IMG/VR virus record: IMGVR_UViG_3300029985_000036
Coordinates: 22,570-86,569 of that record
Direction: 5' to 3' (one strand)
Length of the DNA: 64,000 bases
Source: a virus
Shown here: in pieces, positions 4,945 to 60,465 of the stretch
Position numbering within the stretch: the stretch's first letter is position 1
Layout: every line of letters starts with the position of its first letter
Notes under the pieces: generated by a model
Seen by the model: only the letters and a program-made list of their open reading frames with translations
Database searches by the model: none
Told to the model about the DNA's origin: nothing
Made by a program: the position numbers and the translations under genes

Positions 4945-5691
4945 TTAAACAGTTGGCTTCTGAAGATTCACAATCCGTGCCTGTTCCTGCAGGAACATTA
5001 CAAGTGGGGCACACTTCAAACGGGACTGCAAAATATCTGGACGGATCTTTGAAGCATCTCCGATGTCTACACCATTCACGGCATGGCGAAACAGGGTATA
5101 GACAATCTCAGTGCGAAATCGAGATTGCATATCAAGTGCTGCAATCCCCTGAAGTGCAGCACCTTCCTGCATTACATCATTTTTGTGTTTAACAAAGAAG
5201 TCCCAGACTACCTGAAATACTTCAGGCGTTGGTGTTGCCAACAGACGAGCAACGATGTTGCCAAGCGTTTTTGCGGCATCTGAGAAATCTGCTTTTGCTC
5301 CACCACGACTGGTCAGATATCCTCTGTAGTTATCAAGCAACTCAACCAGGATACTCACCGCCTGAGACACAGGAGCTGTCGTAGGAGCCGGTGTTGGTTC
5401 GACAACAGGTGCTTCAGTGGAAACCGGCTCGACCACTGGAGCAGTGGTGGGTGCTGGGGTAGGAGCTGGAGTGGGCGCGAGGGTGGGAACGGGAGTTGTG
5501 GTAGGAGCAGGAGTCTGTATTACTGGAGCATCGGTGGGGGCAGGAGTAGGCGCTAGCGTAGGTGCCGGAGTCGGAGCAGGCGTTACCACAACGGGGGCTA
5601 CCGTAGGTTCCGGAGTTGGTATAACTGTAGGAACTGGAGCATCCGTCAGCACTGGTGTCGGATCGACCGGCGTAGATGGTTGGTCACTCAT
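4945..5691 (-). CDS. Hypothetical protein with Pro/Thr-rich N-terminal repeats (probable virion protein)
   Basis: PTPAPT repeats then helical domain; start refined to MSDQ at 5691. Confidence 0.7.
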
Positions 5692-7147: not shown

Positions 7148-8187
7148 TTATAAAACTCCCGTGCCAATTCAAGACATCTTCCCGTAATGAATAACTGAAG
7201 AGAAGTGTCATCTGTTGTAAGCAGATCTTTGAGACGCTGAAATGTTGCATCTACATTAGCTGTAAAACTTTCTTTTGTAGAATCTTCTTTCATACATCCC
7301 AGCATCAGAGACAAGATATCTGCCTGAGATAAATATGTTCCACGCAGTCGAAAATACTCTTCATACAGAGGAGTATTTGATTCAAACTCACGGGTAAATC
7401 TAATGACAAGAGCTTGTTCAACCGGATTGATAGATTCGGTCGGGGATTGCTGTTGTTGAAACATCCAAGCATAATTTGCTAATGTATCTGCAGTTGTTGC
7501 ATTGTTTTTATAAATACTAAGTCGATTATATTGCAATTGAATGTCTGCATGCAATCCCGTATAACTTGAATTTGCATATGTATAATCAACTGCTTTCAAT
7601 AACCAACTTGTATGTTTTTGTACATAATCAAGATATGATTGTAACATTTCTGAATCAACGGGGGCTTCAAATGGAATAGTGTCAGTTGCAAGAATTGACA
7701 ATACATAAGCATCAAACACTGGGGTTGATGTCAGTTTGTCGTGTAAAAATACATAGGTATCATAAAACGTATTATTGACATCTGGATAATCTAGTGCAAG
7801 ATACTCCAGTATATTCTGAATAGTAGTATTGTCAGGATCCCCACCTCCATCCTGTACTGTAGCCGTTATCCAGAGTTTAAATCCCTCGGTTTCAGAAATA
7901 CTCCGATACAATGGAGTTGGATATACAGCTTCAAATAACAGCAGTGTCAAATCAAGATGATACATATTGTCACATAAATCAGATCTTGCACAAAAGAACT
8001 CTAAGCCAATTTCATAAGACTCATCGATAAGAACAGAAAAGCATTCAAGAACCAAAGTTTGAGATGATATTTCATCTTCACTAATCTGTTGCTGCCAGAG
8101 TTCACCACCCAAATGAGCTCGTACTCCAGGAGAAACCGAGGCCATGCGTTCAAGAAGTGATGCATGTAGAGTCATGCTAATATCCAT
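7144..8187 (-). CDS. Hypothetical protein (phiKZ gp81 position)
   Basis: 347 aa ORF, stop overlaps start of RNAP subunit gene. Confidence 0.75.
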   Translation of the reverse strand: MDISMTLHASLLERMASVSPGVRAHLGGELWQQQISEDEISSQTLVLECFSVLIDESYEIGLEFFCARSDLCDNMYHLDLTLLLFEAVYPTPLYRSISETEGFKLWITATVQDGGGDPDNTTIQNILEYLALDYPDVNNTFYDTYVFLHDKLTSTPVFDAYVLSILATDTIPFEAPVDSEMLQSYLDYVQKHTSWLLKAVDYTYANSSYTGLHADIQLQYNRLSIYKNNATTADTLANYAWMFQQQQSPTESINPVEQALVIRFTREFESNTPLYEEYFRLRGTYLSQADILSLMLGCMKEDSTKESFTANVDATFQRLKDLLTTDDTSLQLFITGRCLELAREFYK

Positions 8188-8626: not shown

Positions 8627-10743
8627 CCAAACTCGTCCTTTGTGTATATATCACTGAGCAATGTCTGATCCTTACTATCAGTATATGCAATACCAAGTGA
8701 TCTCATCGTGACTATGAAGGGAGTCGAATTCGCATAGGTGATACCACGAATGTCAATGATCGGACGTAGAATTGCAGGAACCTGTTTAAGTGTCATTGGT
8801 ATCACCAATCGGGTAATCGCTCTTGGATTTTTGTCCATAAATCCAACAAGCCGTTCATACAATGGTGAATCGAATGCCTTAACTAATGCTAGATATCTAG
8901 GGTCTTTTAAGACCTTTCCATCTTGCAACAACGGAAGAACATATCCCTTCGATGGAATAACAAATTCACCAAACTTCGATCTAAAGACTTCTTCCCACAA
9001 CCTCCAATAATAGTGACTTGAAACTGCTGCATCCTTGTAGTCAGTCTCATTGCGAATGGGTGTTGTAGTCAGAAAAAGACGTTCCCCCGCTTCGAGTGAT
9101 TTGATTACTTTGTTTTCATGATCCAGAACACGTGTTAAACAATCTGCAACTTCAATTGTACCTTTTTCCATAACGGTATCAAAGATCCAATTTACAAAAT
9201 CCTTTCCAGCTTTCACTGTTTCTTTACACATTGCGCTAGATCGATAAGACAGTCCTTTAATATCTTCCTTTGATTTTGGAAGAACAAATCCTTCTTGGAC
9301 TGCAACACGTCCAGCATATTGTTTAGGAAGTGGAGTGCGAAGCATGAGAGGATAGAGGAACTCATTCTTCATTGCAATCCGATATCGATCTTCTCCTTCT
9401 GCTCCAAAGTTAGTACTCAATCGAGCAAATACTTGTTCTAGTGTCATTGTAATCAAAAATACTACAAATCCATTAATAGCATATGCATCTGGACCAAAGG
9501 ATACATGTCCAACATACCATTCAATCCAAGATTGTGTAGAAAAAATCACACTATCTGTATCTGAGATGATAACAGCTTTACGAATCATATTTGGATGTGA
9601 CATTGCATCTGCCACATCACAATCGACACGCAAGAATGTTGAAATCAGAGGTCCAATACCATTCAGTTTATTTTGCATGTGATTGCCAATAGCAATCAAA
9701 TGTCTGACCCCATCTGGTTCTTCTATCAGTGCATCAGATACTGGTTTTCGACCAATCAGATCTGCATTTAACCCAGATACCATGGCCAAGAGATCGCCAT
9801 TACAATTGAAGATATCTGTTGGCTTTGCAGTAGGATCAATTGTTACATCAGTTCTAAAGAATTCTTTTAAGTATGGACGAAATACATGTTCATTTCGAAT
9901 AAGAAGAGTCTTTAAACAATATGCATAATAAACAAATGTGCGTTCGTTCATAGAAAGAGATGCAATAAATTTAGTGAGAGCATTTCGAAGTTTTTCTGTA
10001 ATACGTTGATATAAACACAGACTGTGAATAAAGTGTTCAACTACATCACTGATGGTTGGAATAATAATTCCATATTGGGCTACAACAGATGCTAAGTCTA
10101 GAGGACATATCCGTACCAGTTGCATGCAATAATTAATACAGTGATCTGGTGTTGGAAAGTAGAAATTTCCTTCAAGCATCTTTTCAACATGAGCATAACC
10201 ACACATAATGCTATGCCGTGCTAGACTTGTAACAGCATTATATCCAGGTTTGTCATATAGAGGATTGTGGGCTGAACCAAAAGCTCCAGGAATGGAGTTA
10301 TTTTCAATCTTAGTTGAAGCTTGTAGATAGTTATATCGTTGTTCTAAACCACGGTCTCCGACAGAAGCCGCTTTTAACATTTTCTTCTTTAGAACTTTAC
10401 GAGTACCTATGTTATCTAGAATTTTTCGTTTAAGAAAACTTTCTTTGACTGAGGGTGGCATATAAATTACACCAGCTGGTGTAATGATGTTCTTTCGCAA
10501 GGTATCTGTATAAGTTAAAAGATCTGTTGTTTCAATTTTACCATTGCCGTATGATGGATAATTGATCATCTTTAGAGTCGGACGTCTTAACGATTTGGTT
10601 ACTTCATTGTTGATGAATGTTTGAATTTGAGCGACTGGAACATGAGGATATTGTCTACATAGAAATGCAGACATATTCTCACCATATGCCCGCAATAAGG
10701 AAACGGGATCTCTCTCATACGAATTGAATTTAAAGTAATCCAT
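8584..10743 (-). CDS. Divergent family B DNA polymerase subunit (phiKZ gp82-like)
   Basis: KIENNSIPG (PolB motif B-like), AVIISDTDSVIF (motif C), KQYAG, IKGL; position next to gp80/81-like genes. Confidence 0.75.
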   Translation of the reverse strand: MDYFKFNSYERDPVSLLRAYGENMSAFLCRQYPHVPVAQIQTFINNEVTKSLRRPTLKMINYPSYGNGKIETTDLLTYTDTLRKNIITPAGVIYMPPSVKESFLKRKILDNIGTRKVLKKKMLKAASVGDRGLEQRYNYLQASTKIENNSIPGAFGSAHNPLYDKPGYNAVTSLARHSIMCGYAHVEKMLEGNFYFPTPDHCINYCMQLVRICPLDLASVVAQYGIIIPTISDVVEHFIHSLCLYQRITEKLRNALTKFIASLSMNERTFVYYAYCLKTLLIRNEHVFRPYLKEFFRTDVTIDPTAKPTDIFNCNGDLLAMVSGLNADLIGRKPVSDALIEEPDGVRHLIAIGNHMQNKLNGIGPLISTFLRVDCDVADAMSHPNMIRKAVIISDTDSVIFSTQSWIEWYVGHVSFGPDAYAINGFVVFLITMTLEQVFARLSTNFGAEGEDRYRIAMKNEFLYPLMLRTPLPKQYAGRVAVQEGFVLPKSKEDIKGLSYRSSAMCKETVKAGKDFVNWIFDTVMEKGTIEVADCLTRVLDHENKVIKSLEAGERLFLTTTPIRNETDYKDAAVSSHYYWRLWEEVFRSKFGEFVIPSKGYVLPLLQDGKVLKDPRYLALVKAFDSPLYERLVGFMDKNPRAITRLVIPMTLKQVPAILRPIIDIRGITYANSTPFIVTMRSLGIAYTDSKDQTLLSDIYTKDEFGCFLPGAIDSALAH

Positions 10744-10897
10744 GGATCAATCCCATCAAAGTGTGTTGTGGATTCTATTAGATGTCCATCCCAAGTATGA
10801 AATAACGGTTCTTTAAATATATGTAATTTTGAATTTGGGTAAACCATTGCATGAGGCGAATAACCTTTTTTATTCATAGTTATACAGGAGCAATTTT

Positions 10898-11182
10898 ATG
10901 TCAGATGATATCCGCCAAGAATTGGATGAACACAAGAAAAATCTTCTTGAATTGAGGAAGCAGATTGTTATTTATCGTGAACAAAAAAGTGGTGATCGTC
11001 AATATACATCTCAAGATGGTGTATTGGTTGTTGCTATTGATGGGTTACTAACAACCCTCGGTACAACAGATCCAACTAAGATTACACTTGAATCTATTGT
11101 CAAGTTAGATGATGACATTCAAGAAGTGGTTCGGTCATCAGAAGTATTTCTCCAGAGGCATGCCCCGAATCCTGTTGTGTAA
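10898..11182 (+). CDS. Hypothetical protein
   Basis: 94 aa, AGGAG RBS upstream. Confidence 0.7.
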   Translation: MSDDIRQELDEHKKNLLELRKQIVIYREQKSGDRQYTSQDGVLVVAIDGLLTTLGTTDPTKITLESIVKLDDDIQEVVRSSEVFLQRHAPNPVV

Positions 11183-44047: not shown

Positions 44048-44082
44048 CTTCACTAAAATAATATATATCTGATTATCGATGA
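44048..44082 (-). promoter_or_regulatory. Phage early promoter
   Basis: Minus strand ...TCAGATATATATTATTTTAGTGAAG. Confidence 0.7.
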
Positions 44083-44108
44083 TATCATACATTCTACTAA
44101 AAAATAAA

Positions 44109-44152
44109 GAGACTATGATCAACTCAGGTATACCTGAGTTGATCATAGTCTC
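44109..44152 (-). terminator. Perfect 44-bp palindrome terminator
   Basis: GAGACTATGATCAACTCAGGTA|TACCTGAGTTGATCATAGTCTC. Confidence 0.7.
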
Positions 44153-44159
44153 GGTTTAC

Positions 44160-44540
44160 TCAATCCTTACGAACAACACCGCGGTTGTTTAGAAACGCAA
44201 TCAAATCCATCGCAACATATTTGAATGTCGGATCCGTCTGAAAGAAGATGGGATCGAACTCTACCACGGTATTCTCGACGAGACCCTTGTACACTTCCGC
44301 GGGGGTCTCTTCATCATAATACGCAACATCGTATCGACCAGTAAGTGGCACCAGACTAAAGCATCCCGCAGTACCATCCCGACGTCCGACGAGGACACAC
44401 TCTCTTTTCGGAATGGTTTTCGCACGCCAAGTCTCATTGAATTCTTGCATTGCATCATTCCGACCCGTGGGTCCGAACAGATTTGAAATGCAGAATGTCG
44501 GCGAAACAAACGAATTGACATTAAACATGGCACAACTCAC
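44160..44540 (-). CDS. Hypothetical protein
   Basis: ORF between promoter and terminator; start uncertain. Confidence 0.6.
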   Translation of the reverse strand: MSCAMFNVNSFVSPTFCISNLFGPTGRNDAMQEFNETWRAKTIPKRECVLVGRRDGTAGCFSLVPLTGRYDVAYYDEETPAEVYKGLVENTVVEFDPIFFQTDPTFKYVAMDLIAFLNNRGVVRKD

Positions 44541-44576
44541 TTACGTGTGAATAGATTTAGATACTTTGCTTTGTAT

Positions 44577-44613
44577 CTTCATTGTAGTGATATATATCTG
44601 AAATAGAATGAAA
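44577..44613 (-). promoter_or_regulatory. Phage early promoter
   Basis: Minus strand TTTCATTCTATTTCAGATATATATCACTACAATGAAG. Confidence 0.75.
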
Positions 44614-44652
44614 CGCTGTTTAATATTCAAATAAAAAAATAAAGAAACTTCG

Positions 44653-44685
44653 ATCCAGAGTCTTCCTTTGGGGAAGACTCTGGAT
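44653..44685 (-). terminator. Terminator of the ncRNA operon
   Basis: ATCCAGAGTCTTCC...GGAAGACTCTGGAT followed on minus strand by TTTCTTTATTTTTT. Confidence 0.75.
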
Positions 44686-45293
44686 GTACTATAGTTCCGA
44701 CGCTGTGCTCATGACCGTCCTGCTGACTTACCGTAATCGATACCAGAACGGATCCTAAGATCTCGTACTATTGGTGTATGATTATCGACGTCCTGGACGT
44801 GTGTCACCTTTTGGTATTGTCGGATAGGTGTGGGTGGTGTTGAGACCTCGTGAGGATCCCATCTCTGCTAGCTATTTGTGAAGCACTGGCATCCCATATT
44901 GCTTCTACAGACTCCAATTTATGGCTTCTGTACAGCCAGAGGCTCCTGTAGTCTGCAATTGGGCATTCACAAAACTCCTTTAGACGCTAGTGCGAGCTCC
45001 CCTCGCACGATTTTCGGCCATGTCATTACACTGCTTCCTCTGGTTATTTCTAATACAATGGGACGACAATAGTGGCGTGACTAATACCACTTTATCGACG
45101 GTATCAGACCACATTAAAGGTCCGATAAGTCTCAACAGCTTATGCGCCTACGTGTGTTCGTGCACGGGTGGTTCATCCGCTGTGTAACAAGCATCTCTCA
45201 ATCATGCATTCATGTTCACAACTGGGTGTGAATTATACATGTACACGAAGATCTGAATACTTGGGGTTGAGTTGAGACCAATGTGGTTCACCC
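44686..45293 (-). ncRNA. Large structured ncRNA (~600 nt) downstream of hammerhead 1
   Basis: No credible ORF; nested stems 44838-44846/45129-45137, 44875-44882/44966-44973, 44905-44910/44946-44951, 44990-44996/45002-45008. Confidence 0.55.
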
Positions 45294-45343
45294 GACATAC
45301 AAGCTTGTATGTTTCGCTCTTACCAAGGAGCTCATCAGGGGTG
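45289..45343 (-). ncRNA. Hammerhead ribozyme 1 (type I)
   Basis: CACCC CUGAUGA GCUC-cuugguaa-GAGC GAAA CAUAC-aagcuu-GUAUG UC/GGGUG: complete core, three stems, GUC cleavage between 45294 and 45293. Confidence 0.92.
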
Positions 45344-45633
45344 GAAAATCTATGGATGCAGGTGTACGAACAATGCCCGCAAGGCCTGCATCCATAGTTG
45401 CGCGGGTCCACAACTAGCTGTGGCAAAGGTGGCAGCGCCGGTGCCCCACAACCCCACGATCAACAAAGTTAGTTAACTTTGTTGCAGATAGCTATCGTAA
45501 CCCATCTCATGTATTGTGAGATGGGTTACGATAAGTCGCACCTTTCGATCAGTACAAACTAGCAATGTTTGGTTCTGCAGAACCAAACACAGACGCTGGA
45601 CCGATGGGGAGAATACAAGCGACCAAATTGTAG
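45344..45633 (-). ncRNA. Structured RNA between the two hammerheads
   Basis: Stems 45350-45362/45385-45397, 45461-45484, 45493-45509/45517-45533, 45566-45589, 45425-45431/45539-45545; no credible ORF. Confidence 0.6.
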
Positions 45634-45686
45634 ACATCCGACACACGTAGAGTGTGTTTCGACCTATAAGGTCTCATCAGGGATGT
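45634..45686 (-). ncRNA. Hammerhead ribozyme 2 (type I)
   Basis: ACAUCC CUGAUGA GACCU-uau-AGGUC GAAA CACAC-ucuac-GUGUG UC/GGAUGU; cleavage between 45640 and 45639. Confidence 0.92.
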
Positions 45687-45694
45687 TGTAGCAA

Positions 45695-45967
45695 AGTTGA
45701 CTTAGAGAATCAAACGGAAATATTTGTAGAGACTAGACTACCATATTCTCCAATTTGTTGTGACCCTAGTAAATGAATAGTGCAACCTATCAATAGATAA
45801 AACAAAGGGGCACCAGTGTTCTACTATGTACACGATTCAAACCAGGGACAAATCAGAGACGATCATCTACTCCACCCGAAGAGTCCATCCAGACAATACC
45901 GATGGGGGTCTTTTCCGTGTCACGTGTTCTCGACAGGACTTGCGTCCCTTGATTCTCTAAGTCAACT
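45695..45967 (-). ncRNA. ~270-nt RNA domain closed by perfect 19-bp stem
   Basis: AGTTGACTTAGAGAATCAA (45695-45713) pairs with TTGATTCTCTAAGTCAACT (45949-45967); internal GGAC-GCAA-GUCC GNRA hairpin. Confidence 0.6.
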
Positions 45968-45978
45968 CTAAAGAAAGC

Positions 45979-46068
45979 AGATCCTTTCTCAACTTTCGGA
46001 TCTATTATCAACCAGCATGCGGTACAATAACAATTAGAGTTTCATTATTGTGCTGAGACATATTGACA
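45979..46068 (-). ncRNA. Unknown pseudoknotted RNA motif, copy C
   Basis: AUGUCUCAGCACAAU..AUUGUACCGCAUGCUGGUUGAU..GAUCCGAAAGUUGAGAAAGGAUC. Confidence 0.7.
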
Positions 46069-46133
46069 GGGTCACTTACCTAATACCAAAGCTCCAACAC
46101 ATCAATAGGTGATAATATTTTTGTTATAGAAGT

Positions 46134-46263
46134 GGCCCTTTCTCAACCTTCGGGTCCTCATCAACCAGCATGCGGTATAACTTACTCAGGGTTACAGTCT
46201 ATCCCAACAGCCAAGAAGGAACAACTGTAATTGATTATGAGGGTTATGCTGAGACATATCATG
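46134..46263 (-). ncRNA. Unknown pseudoknotted RNA motif, copy B (long variable stem)
   Basis: AUGUCUCAGCAUAAC..GUUAUACCGCAUGCUGGUUGAU..GACCCGAAGGUUGAGAAAGGGCC. Confidence 0.7.
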
Positions 46264-46342
46264 CGCGTACAGACTAATTCTGAACGCTCAATGACAGGTT
46301 GCTGTCTAACTAAACTCTTTGTAATTGTTCCTCTAAAGGAAC

Positions 46343-46426
46343 GATCCTTTCTCAACTTTCGGATCTTCGTTAATCAGCATGCGCTACATTACTGCGGGGC
46401 AGAGATTGTGCTGAGACATGTCAACA
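46343..46426 (-). ncRNA. Unknown pseudoknotted RNA motif, copy A
   Basis: AUGUCUCAGCACAAU..AAUGUAGCGCAUGCUGAUUAAC..GAUCCGAAAGUUGAGAAAGGAUC. Confidence 0.7.
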
Positions 46427-46534
46427 GGGGAGAATCCATTGACAGATTAACGATACACTCATTTTCCACATAGAATAATTCTAGTGGGTGATTTGTTACT
46501 CCAACATCTATAAATTACAGATGTCTTTGTATAT

Positions 46535-46570
46535 CTCATAATTGTAATATATATCTGAATATGGATGAAC
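46535..46570 (-). promoter_or_regulatory. Phage early promoter driving the ncRNA operon
   Basis: Minus strand GTTCATCCATATTCAGATATATATTACAATTATGAG. Confidence 0.75.
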
Positions 46571-46599
46571 TTTATCCATATAATTATTAAAAGGTTCTT

Positions 46600-47080
46600 T
46601 TATTTTGCAGACCAAAGGATTTCATTAAATTCGTCAGTGGACACATTATGACATTGAACCAACGTGGCTTTTATTTCTGCCAAAGTTACTTTTCCAACAC
46701 CACCATTATCTCGAATACCATCTCGTATGAGATCTCCAACGGTATATCCATCAAAACGTGATGCTGGAATTACCAGTTTAAGTGACCACCGAGTACGATG
46801 TGTAAGTGATCCTGTGCCAATAAAATCCTTTAATAACATACTGCGGATATCGGCTGGAATTATATGTGTATTTTCCAGATACTTTTGGACACGTCGATAT
46901 CTGAGAACAATCGATTTTATCGTAGTCCCTGCTCGATTAAAGTATCGACCTGCTTCTATAGGTATGTCCCGCATCGACATAATCGGCTACTTCTTTTTCT
47001 GTAAATCCTCGAGCTTTGATACTTTTAATGGATTGTCTATTCTGATGGTGTTGAACATCGAAATCGGTTACATCAACCAT
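46600..47080 (-). pseudogene. Frameshifted HTH plus RNAP alpha-CTD-like gene
   Basis: RBS-led ORF 47080-46937 (..EVADYVDAGHTY) and ORF 46980-46600 (EAGRYFNRAGTTIKSIV..LTHRTRWSLK..TVGDL..GVGKVTLAEIKATL) join into one HTH near 46957. Confidence 0.55.
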
Positions 47081-52693: not shown

Positions 52694-52731
52694 TCGAACA
52701 GGGGGTTGGGCTTTCGCCCACCCCCTGTCGA
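52694..52731 (-). terminator. GC-rich terminator after tRNA-like RNA
   Basis: ACAGGGGGUGGGC-GAAA-GCCCAACCCCCUGU followed by U-rich run on minus strand. Confidence 0.7.
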
Positions 52732-52799
52732 GTTGTTGGAATCGGACCAACGACGATATGACGCAATGCATATGTTTTACCAACTAAACTAAACTCTGA
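52728..52799 (-). ncRNA. Degenerate tRNA-like RNA
   Basis: GAGUU/AACUC acceptor, UA-GUUU-AGUUGGUA-AAAC D arm, AUAUG-8nt-CAUAU anticodon arm, GUUGG-UCCGAUU-CCAAC T arm. Confidence 0.65.
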
Positions 52800-52835
52800 T
52801 TTCAAATAAGTAATATATATCTGAATCTGGATGAA
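52800..52835 (-). promoter_or_regulatory. Phage early promoter
   Basis: Minus strand TTTCATCCAGATTCAGATATATATTACTTATTTGAAA; shares a ~34-bp exact direct repeat with the promoter at 52550. Confidence 0.75.
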
Positions 52836-60429: not shown

Positions 60430-60465
60430 CTTCATTGTAGTGGTATATATCTGAAATAGAATGAA
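60430..60465 (-). promoter_or_regulatory. Phage early promoter
   Basis: Minus strand TTTCATTCTATTTCAGATATATACCACTACAATGAAG. Confidence 0.75.

Follow-up and report, generated by a model that had tools for sequence, protein, structure and literature searches.

Three repeats on the minus strand of a viral DNA stretch are copies of a structured RNA domain of 85-130 nt, in which the loop of a 3' hairpin pairs with an upstream strand to form a pseudoknot. Comparison with homologues makes it very probable that this is a genuine structured RNA family having this pseudoknot, and we regard it as a new family of hammerhead-associated structured phage RNA. New natural RNA folds whose pseudoknot is supported by covariation are uncommon, and this one comes from a phage hammerhead neighbourhood, the kind of place that was the source of three ribozyme classes (PMC6765202). 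If the motif does not cleave, it is a conserved, expressed RNA domain of which a jumbo phage of the nucleus-forming type carries three copies at the start of a long non-coding operon, and would point to RNA-based decoy or scaffold roles in phage infection, which are almost unexplored. Non-coding operons punctuated by ribozymes are present in at least two unrelated peat phages.

Three copies of the motif in one window

The window, by which we mean the whole 64,000-nt stretch analysed here, comprises bases 22570-86569 of an 86.6-kb IMG/VR virus record whose completeness is put at 38% by CheckV. The virus is a phiKZ-like jumbo phage from peat. Its RNA polymerase beta protein (1704 aa) is only 28-34% identical to those of phiKZ-like jumbo phages; near-identical DNA turns up in 16 DNA runs, of which one is marine and the other 15 carry the label peat metagenome, and in part also in eight RNA runs from peat or permafrost. 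Positions 44500-47000 have no DNA match among the 50,697 phage records of the INPHARED collection, close relatives of the neighbouring proteins and of the RNA polymerase beta protein were not found in IMG/VR, and a phage protein query against 5.8 billion proteins matched only itself.

In the fold defined here, helix P1 closes the domain and is followed by an invariant UG and by the 5' strand of the pseudoknot, UC(U/C)CAG(C/U), which abuts a hairpin, P3, that is free in length and sequence; a conserved single strand, A-N-CGCAUGC-N-G, then goes back to P1. Two or three nt past P1 lies the 5-bp hairpin P4, whose 13-nt loop, GAAR-(G/A)UUG(A/G)GA-AA, forms the 7-bp pseudoknot with that 5' strand. 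Two covariance models, R1 and R2, were built from the copies, which in the window are the following:

46343-46426, minus strand: motif copy A (R1 100.3 bits, R2 95 bits); P1 is GUUGA/UUAAC, P3 is short and the J box is AGCGCAUGCUG; the UGUC box and the 5' strand of the knot lie at 46416-46410, the 3' strand of the knot at 46356-46350; P4 pairs 46365-46361 with 46347-46343
46134-46263, minus strand: motif copy B (R1 93.4 bits, R2 86.4 bits); a long insert makes P3 about 45 nt longer than in copies A and C; P1 is weak; P4, GACCC/GGGCC, contains one A-C mismatch; the pseudoknot pairs 46254-46248 with 46147-46141
45979-46068, minus strand: motif copy C (R1 106.3 bits, R2 100.1 bits); P1 is UGUCAAU/GUUGAUA (46068-46062 with 46012-46006); pseudoknot strands at 46058-46052 and 45993-45987; P4 pairs 46002-45998 with 45984-45980

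A first-pass annotation, made from the letters of the window, had placed three minus-strand copies with shared boxes here; they are real, and the boxes stand far above chance. The 3' box CCGAARGTTGAGAAAGG occurs three times in the window, solely at the three copies even when three mismatches are allowed (0.22 expected by chance; three reached in none of 100 shuffles). At these three places the 5' box ATGTCTCAGCAYAA also matches without a mismatch, and the fourth match that it acquires elsewhere with two mismatches is at chance level (four found, 1.64 expected). A repeat search recovered the same three-copy families (D1, D3 and D5). The models score the copies at 93-106 bits (R1) and 86-100 bits (R2); with filters off, the next best place in the window reaches 11.5 bits with R2, and a covariance-model search of the whole 86.6-kb record found no fourth copy. 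The conserved fold alternates with variable segments of 65-79 nt that follow each copy.

Homologues and covariation

Scanning of JGI metagenome contigs with the P4 hairpin word yielded three contigs, L170, L171 and L172, and the covariance model from the copies, the check that the first-pass annotation had proposed, found members on all three: one copy on L171 (1.7 kb; R1 69 bits), and the same two copies on each of L170 and L172 (R1 51 and 35 bits). L170 and L172 overlap at 99.99% identity, represent the same phage and were counted once; the working alignment (A2) thus holds six distinct sequences from three contigs (three from the window, one from L171 and two from L170). Protein comparison of L170 and L171 with the window found no linking similarity. 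A relative about 88-90% identical to the window appears in peat RNA libraries, as a 466-nt contig (run X20, depth 132.8) and a 213-nt contig (run X18) that are 18-23 letters apart from copy C and its flanks. The P4 words of two further copies lie on the 466-nt contig, spaced by about 203 and 158 nt against 209 and 154 nt in the window; from this agreement the three-copy layout seems conserved. X18 and X20 together appear to contain at least three additional variants of the motif.

Across the six sequences, P1, P3, P4 and the pseudoknot together are paired in 89.5% of cells, against 80.8% in shuffles, none of 500 of which reached the observed pairing; slid partners pair in 27-46%. Changes on both sides are seen at 10 of 24 pairs, the slid controls of the covariation test giving 0.04-0.14 against 0.39. 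The signal is distributed unevenly among the helices. P3 has both-side changes at all five counted pairs and ranges in length from about 15 to more than 60 nt, and P4 has such a change at one of its five pairs, with the single A-C mismatch. In the pseudoknot all 42 cells are paired and two of the seven pairs are compensatory, both changes coming from a single sequence, L170 copy 2, where UCCCAGU with AUUGGGA stands in place of UCUCAGC with GUUGAGA; the chance of this double compensation is estimated at about 1 in 190. By our own mapping, the RNA-library relative has replaced the G.U pair of the knot by A-U (place 46053), and P1 of copy C carries five changes there, one of them U-A to C-G, none of which breaks the pairing. 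In the common register P1 is paired less well (68%) than any other helix; in L170 its 5' strand lies 40-50 nt further upstream, past an extra hairpin inserted between P1 and the UGUC box, and forms 8-9 bp with the core kept. Among unpaired positions the UG, A-N-CGCAUGC-N-G, GAAR and AA elements are conserved, with one U-to-C change in each of two lineages; about 17 unpaired nucleotides of the fold are invariant. Nested minimum-free-energy folds of the three window copies are not stabler than shuffles (z -0.57, +0.40 and -1.25); the z values are -1.83 and -2.29 for the L170 copies and -3.44 for L171.

The main structural claims of the first-pass annotation withstood this comparison: its compensating changes are confirmed in the stems of the copies, its fixed core around a differing inserted stem held (P3 length is free, the junction boxes are fixed), and its pairing of UCUCAGC with GUUGAGA is backed by covariation in the homologues. 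A rival local helix, CAGC/GCUG (P2), is chosen by RNAalifold because that program cannot draw knots. It was dropped for showing zero compensatory change and for its mismatches, an A-C in L170 copy 2 and another created by the G-to-A change at 46053 in the RNA-library relative. Both CAGC/GCUG and the pseudoknot can form in most members, and a two-state switch is possible. An AUG/CAU mini-helix was also dropped, being lost in the RNA-library variant.

The same annotation had named a simple DNA repeat as what would be left if covariation or structure were lacking; covariation is present. It is barely credible that the copies act as a DNA-level repeat, such as protein-binding iterons, or represent a repeated coding segment, rather than RNA. 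They are indeed three direct repeats with fixed boxes, and one IMG/VR look-alike (L308) is a coding repeat, but their stems change on both sides with the boxes fixed, the length differences between stems are not divisible by three, no reading frame stays open from the first copy to the last, and the region occurs in RNA libraries in a non-uniform pattern. Moreover the G.U pairs work on one strand only and, being invariant, make the fold strand-specific.

Comparison with known RNA families

The lack of a match to known ribozymes or common riboswitches, noted in the first-pass annotation, holds against Rfam 15, including its RAGATH models. The window copies have no match at gathering level, and at E values up to 10 none was found in 3.5 kb of the locus, in the copies alone (481 nt) or in the two L170 copies; within the copy region the sole Rfam hit, at 18.8 bits to a Pseudomonas sRNA model, is due to chance. 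Models of the pistol, hatchet, twister, twister-sister, HDV-like, hairpin and glmS ribozymes gave no match at E up to 10, a result that applies to unpermuted forms, as permuted ones would be missed by the Rfam ribozyme models. Hammerhead models gave zero hits on the copies, and the letters following GCUG differ from the hammerhead in six of six copies; a permuted hammerhead was rejected because the copies are without a CUGANGA box, and an HDV-like fold was rejected on strand order. Literature searches found no description of the motif. The family is absent from Rfam 15; the motif may already be listed under another name, for example among the HRIMA motifs or the RAGATH candidates of 2015.

The features that mark RAGATH-type candidates are both present: a secondary structure supported by covariation, and a recurrent place near hammerheads or twisters, here in the window and in L170. 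RAGATH models in Rfam 15 leave the motif unmatched, RAGATH-1 being touched by the hammerhead only. Like the RAGATH and HRIMA orphan motifs, it has a covarying fold, lies on the same strand beside hammerheads and comes from phage DNA or metatranscriptomes.

Among established ribozymes, pistol offers a close architectural parallel: there a hairpin loop pairs with an internal-loop strand between two stems, the hairpin lies 5' and the opposite strand of the internal loop holds a short G-U site. The motif is likewise small and phage-associated, and its hairpin loop pairs with an internal-loop strand so that the knot stacks between helices; unlike pistol, its hairpin is 3' of the other stems, its opposite internal-loop strand comprises 11 conserved nt, and its conserved letters differ. 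A type I hammerhead at 9686-9640 of L170 can form a loop-to-tail pseudoknot from the same word pair that the motif uses, and such hammerheads occupy the same loci as the motif; the motif, however, is without the conserved CUGANGA box and the three-way hammerhead core.

A gene-free unit with hammerhead cores

The minus strand from about 46560 to 44630 (about 1.9 kb) is without any ORF longer than 80 aa, and the three copies stand at the head of this unit, whose other features are:

46542-46558, minus strand: promoter-like word TCAGATATATATTACAA, which precedes copy A by about 115 nt; transcription of the non-coding unit probably starts in this region
45634-45686, minus strand: type I hammerhead 1, with complete core CUGAUGAG...CGAAAC...GUC, about 300 nt downstream of copy C
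45289-45343, minus strand: type I hammerhead 2, with the core pattern and a weak HH9 match; predicted cut after GUC at 45294
44629-44683, minus strand: by eye, a hairpin with a 12-bp stem and a T-rich tail behind it, where the non-coding unit probably ends

The word TCAGATAYATATYAYTA, with up to three mismatches, occurs 14 times in the window, every time on the minus strand (2.64 expected), and a sigma-70 consensus scan of the window showed no enrichment. In the form TCAGATATATATYACTA this word, whose sites include 44585-44601, 46542-46558, 52808-52824 and 60438-60454, is likely a phage-specific promoter. L171 has a similar promoter-like word at about 289-305. RNA-library contigs end at 44692-44697, near the hairpin at 44629-44683, which a terminator scan passes over because its T run begins more than 2 nt past the stem. 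Two further minus-strand elements lie outside the unit: a perfect 20-bp hairpin with a T tail at 44075-44157, a strong terminator after ORF 44160-44540 whose Rfam matches (plastid psbM 3'UTR and microRNA models) are due to chance, and a weak tRNA-like match at 52730-52796 (Rfam 35 bits), on which ARAGORN makes no call.

Hammerhead 1 scores 29 bits with the Rfam model Hammerhead_1 (E 2.7e-4), below the gathering score of 34. The hammerhead core pattern is found twice in the window (45311-45338 and 45656-45680; 0.02 expected), about 300 and 650 nt downstream of copy C (within 300-750 nt) and on the same strand, and four times in L170 (0.17 expected), again on the strand of the copies and 1.05-2.5 kb downstream; none was found within the 1.7 kb of L171. 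The hammerhead setting proposed at the outset is borne out by these same-strand cores in the window and L170, and the association of the motif with a hammerhead array recurs in two unrelated phage contigs.

L170 displays several additional elements. Its four cores lie in 1.5 kb of gene-poor DNA (9440-10920, minus strand), one hammerhead being directly 3' of a tRNA (9771-9698). Just 3' of its cut, this tRNA-linked hammerhead (9604-9686, minus strand) has two GUCUCAA boxes with which its stem II loop, UUGAGAU, can pair, using the same words as the motif's knot. A second repeat, GGCACGCA...AAGGCGAU(A/U)GC, follows three cut sites, and two of its copies continue ...CUCAUUGAAAUGGG; it is a further unrecognised RNA element.

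The genes around the copies bear on two readings. In L170 the order is a GNAT acetyltransferase gene, copy 1, a 59-aa zinc-ribbon-like ORF, copy 2 and a 154-aa ORF for which no Pfam family was found; downstream of the window and L171 copies no gene or ORF was found. A cis-acting riboswitch or translational operator, in which a ligand-dependent knot hides the purine-rich GAGAAAGG(A/G), would draw on the likeness of that word to a ribosome-binding site, on the division of the invariant GAAAGG among knot, loop and P4, on the alternative pairings of P2 and pseudoknot, which suggest a switch, and on L170 copy 1, where an AUG lies 8 nt past AGGA. We nevertheless hold this to be very unlikely: the three window copies and the L171 copy have no start codon at a suitable distance, better L170 ORFs start 30 and 60 nt on, one with its own AGGAAGGA, the downstream genes share no common function, and no gene class recurs after the motif.

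The alternation of conserved fold and variable spacer could recall an array of guide-RNA scaffolds, in which the 65-79-nt segments after each copy would serve an RNA-guided protein; RAGATH-18, an orphan associated with hammerheads, proved to be a nuclease guide for IS607 TnpB (PMC11061315). Such a role is highly improbable here, as no TnpB-, IscB- or Cas-like gene is seen beside the locus, P1 and P3 vary among copies, unlike the repeats of guide arrays, and the L170 copies precede genes rather than spacers.

RNA libraries, processing and self-cleavage

Assembled contigs of four RNA runs were mapped to the locus; contigs of this kind cannot reveal RNA ends, partial cleavage or dips in depth. 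The copies are covered by contigs from two of the four runs (X18 and X20), and other parts of the locus in all four. This non-uniform coverage argues for RNA rather than DNA carry-over. Positions 45279-45768, comprising both hammerheads and the 346-nt piece between them, are covered in none of the four runs, with RNA on either side. A 243-nt contig (46474-46232) spans copy A whole and another (46310-46159) overlaps copy B; contigs of the relative at 45904-46110 contain the pair-preserving changes in P1 of copy C, and its 466-nt contig, starting at P4 of copy A, continues unbroken across the homologues of B and C. Within the limits of such contigs, the locus has one adapter-marked RNA end, at 45271, and none in any copy. 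Contigs from X17 and X19 end exactly there, and that from X19 has the Illumina adapter directly behind, which marks 45271 as a true 5' end of RNA; it lies 22 nt past the predicted cut of hammerhead 2.

These data bear first on the possibility that the motif is a new class of small self-cleaving ribozyme. Here the pseudoknot of P4 loop and internal loop would combine with the conserved UG and CGCAUGC strands into an active site, and the copies and hammerheads would dice the phage transcript. The compact pseudoknotted fold with its invariant junction nucleotides is what such a reading calls for, as are multiple copies at intervals on the same strand as two hammerheads in the window and four in L170, and the lack of a consistent downstream gene. 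Three ribozyme classes came from hammerhead-type neighbourhoods, but the published base rate is low, most neighbourhood motifs being without cleavage when tested: in the portions of the two reports that treat them, further neighbourhood motifs 'did not cleave' (PMC6765202), and of ten HRIMA motifs tested, cleavage was seen in none (PMC10085705). In addition, no ribozyme model matches, RNA-library contigs cross whole copies, one of them at depth 132.8, and the adapter-marked end lies at 45271 and not within the copies; the unbroken contigs tell weakly against fast, complete self-cleavage. We therefore think a ribozyme unlikely. Equally unlikely is that it will prove to be the eleventh or so natural small self-cleaving ribozyme, with a pistol-like knot in a different strand order, working together with the hammerheads to cut the non-coding operons of jumbo phages into defined RNAs.

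The RNA end at 45271 is also pertinent to a signal for processing or stability that is read by protein, either a mark for cutting by a host or phage RNase or a block to exonucleases, from which defined RNA pieces would survive. The RNA ends of the locus do not match the hammerhead cuts, the 5' end at 45271 falls at GGUCUCAAC, a word resembling the motif's pseudoknot strand, and the L170 copies flank a small cistron. Yet no RNA end is seen in the contigs at the copies themselves, the resemblance of the word may be chance, and one end does not need three tandem blocks; we judge this role quite unlikely. The word GGUCUCAAC occurs twice in the 3' RNA of about 600 nt, at 45264-45279 and 44832-44847 (minus strand), and the X19 contig, 44834-45271, extends between the two. 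Both words can pair with GUUGAGAC at 45137-45130, and they are the same words as those of the motif's pseudoknot.

A possible recognition module

The reading we prefer, tentatively and at somewhat less than even confidence, is that each copy is an independently folding, non-catalytic recognition domain, displayed in several copies. Its partner would be a small ligand or a protein, and three copies on a stable stretch of processed phage RNA could act as a decoy, sponge or docking scaffold. In L170, where single copies lie between cistrons, the same partner could be recruited to the messenger. The two alternative pairings of CAGC, with GCUG and in the pseudoknot, may make the domain a two-state switch. 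A classical riboswitch is not what we envisage, because no ORF follows the window copies and the downstream genes of L170 are mutually unrelated.

The decoys CsrB and RsmZ are stable non-coding RNAs with several binding modules, each a simple GGA hairpin loop. The motif resembles them in presenting several copies of one module on a non-coding RNA and differs in that each module is a four-helix pseudoknotted domain. Nor do its details fit binding of the CsrA type: the G-G-A/G lies in the P4 stem rather than in a loop, and is GGG in two of six copies. Against a recognition module stand the intricate fold with about 17 invariant unpaired nucleotides, which suits a ribozyme as well as an aptamer, and the placement of several copies along the strand of hammerheads, the classic setting of self-cleaving ribozymes; the covariation, moreover, comes from six distinct sequences.

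Searches for further members

The family looks rare, with three phage lineages known and nothing more found in IMG/VR. There the exact 3' box occurs at 51 loci, nearly all of them one gene end plus its ribosome site, and none of the 51 has the 5' box; the 5' box together with the J box occurs at 11 loci, none with the 3' hairpin. A looser J-plus-loop pattern gave 104 loci, of which 99 (L066-L164) reached at best 16.8 bits with R1, and R2 found nothing on the other five at E up to 1. A knot-variant pattern matched 11 viral loci and at least 120 in genome_contigs; no R2 member was found among the matches listed, and a UGUCNCAR box lies within 110 nt in none of these 131. A P4-only pattern matched three viral loci, of which L307 and L309 score just 12 bits and L308 (24 bits) was rejected as a coding DPNVVKG repeat. 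R2 gave no match on five acidobacterial genomes and a 151-genome sample of that phylum, in a search run without a positive control.

Five loci from Acidobacteriaceae (L201, L207, L219, L236 and L288), pre-selected by the search pattern itself, score 13.7-26.5 bits with R2 and were rejected, being without the 5' box and P4. They share an element of their own (192-285, 7483-7574, 288-371, 2458-2540 and 5400-5516, respectively), for which no match to Rfam families was found and which is probably unrelated to the motif. It consists of CGCAUGCCG in a hairpin, a closing stem of 9-11 bp and GAAAAUUGAGAAAAGAUCC, and resembles the motif's 3' half. Two of the five loci, L201 and L236, have a 16S rRNA gene call, and in both the element is on the strand opposite the gene, about 480-530 nt upstream of it.
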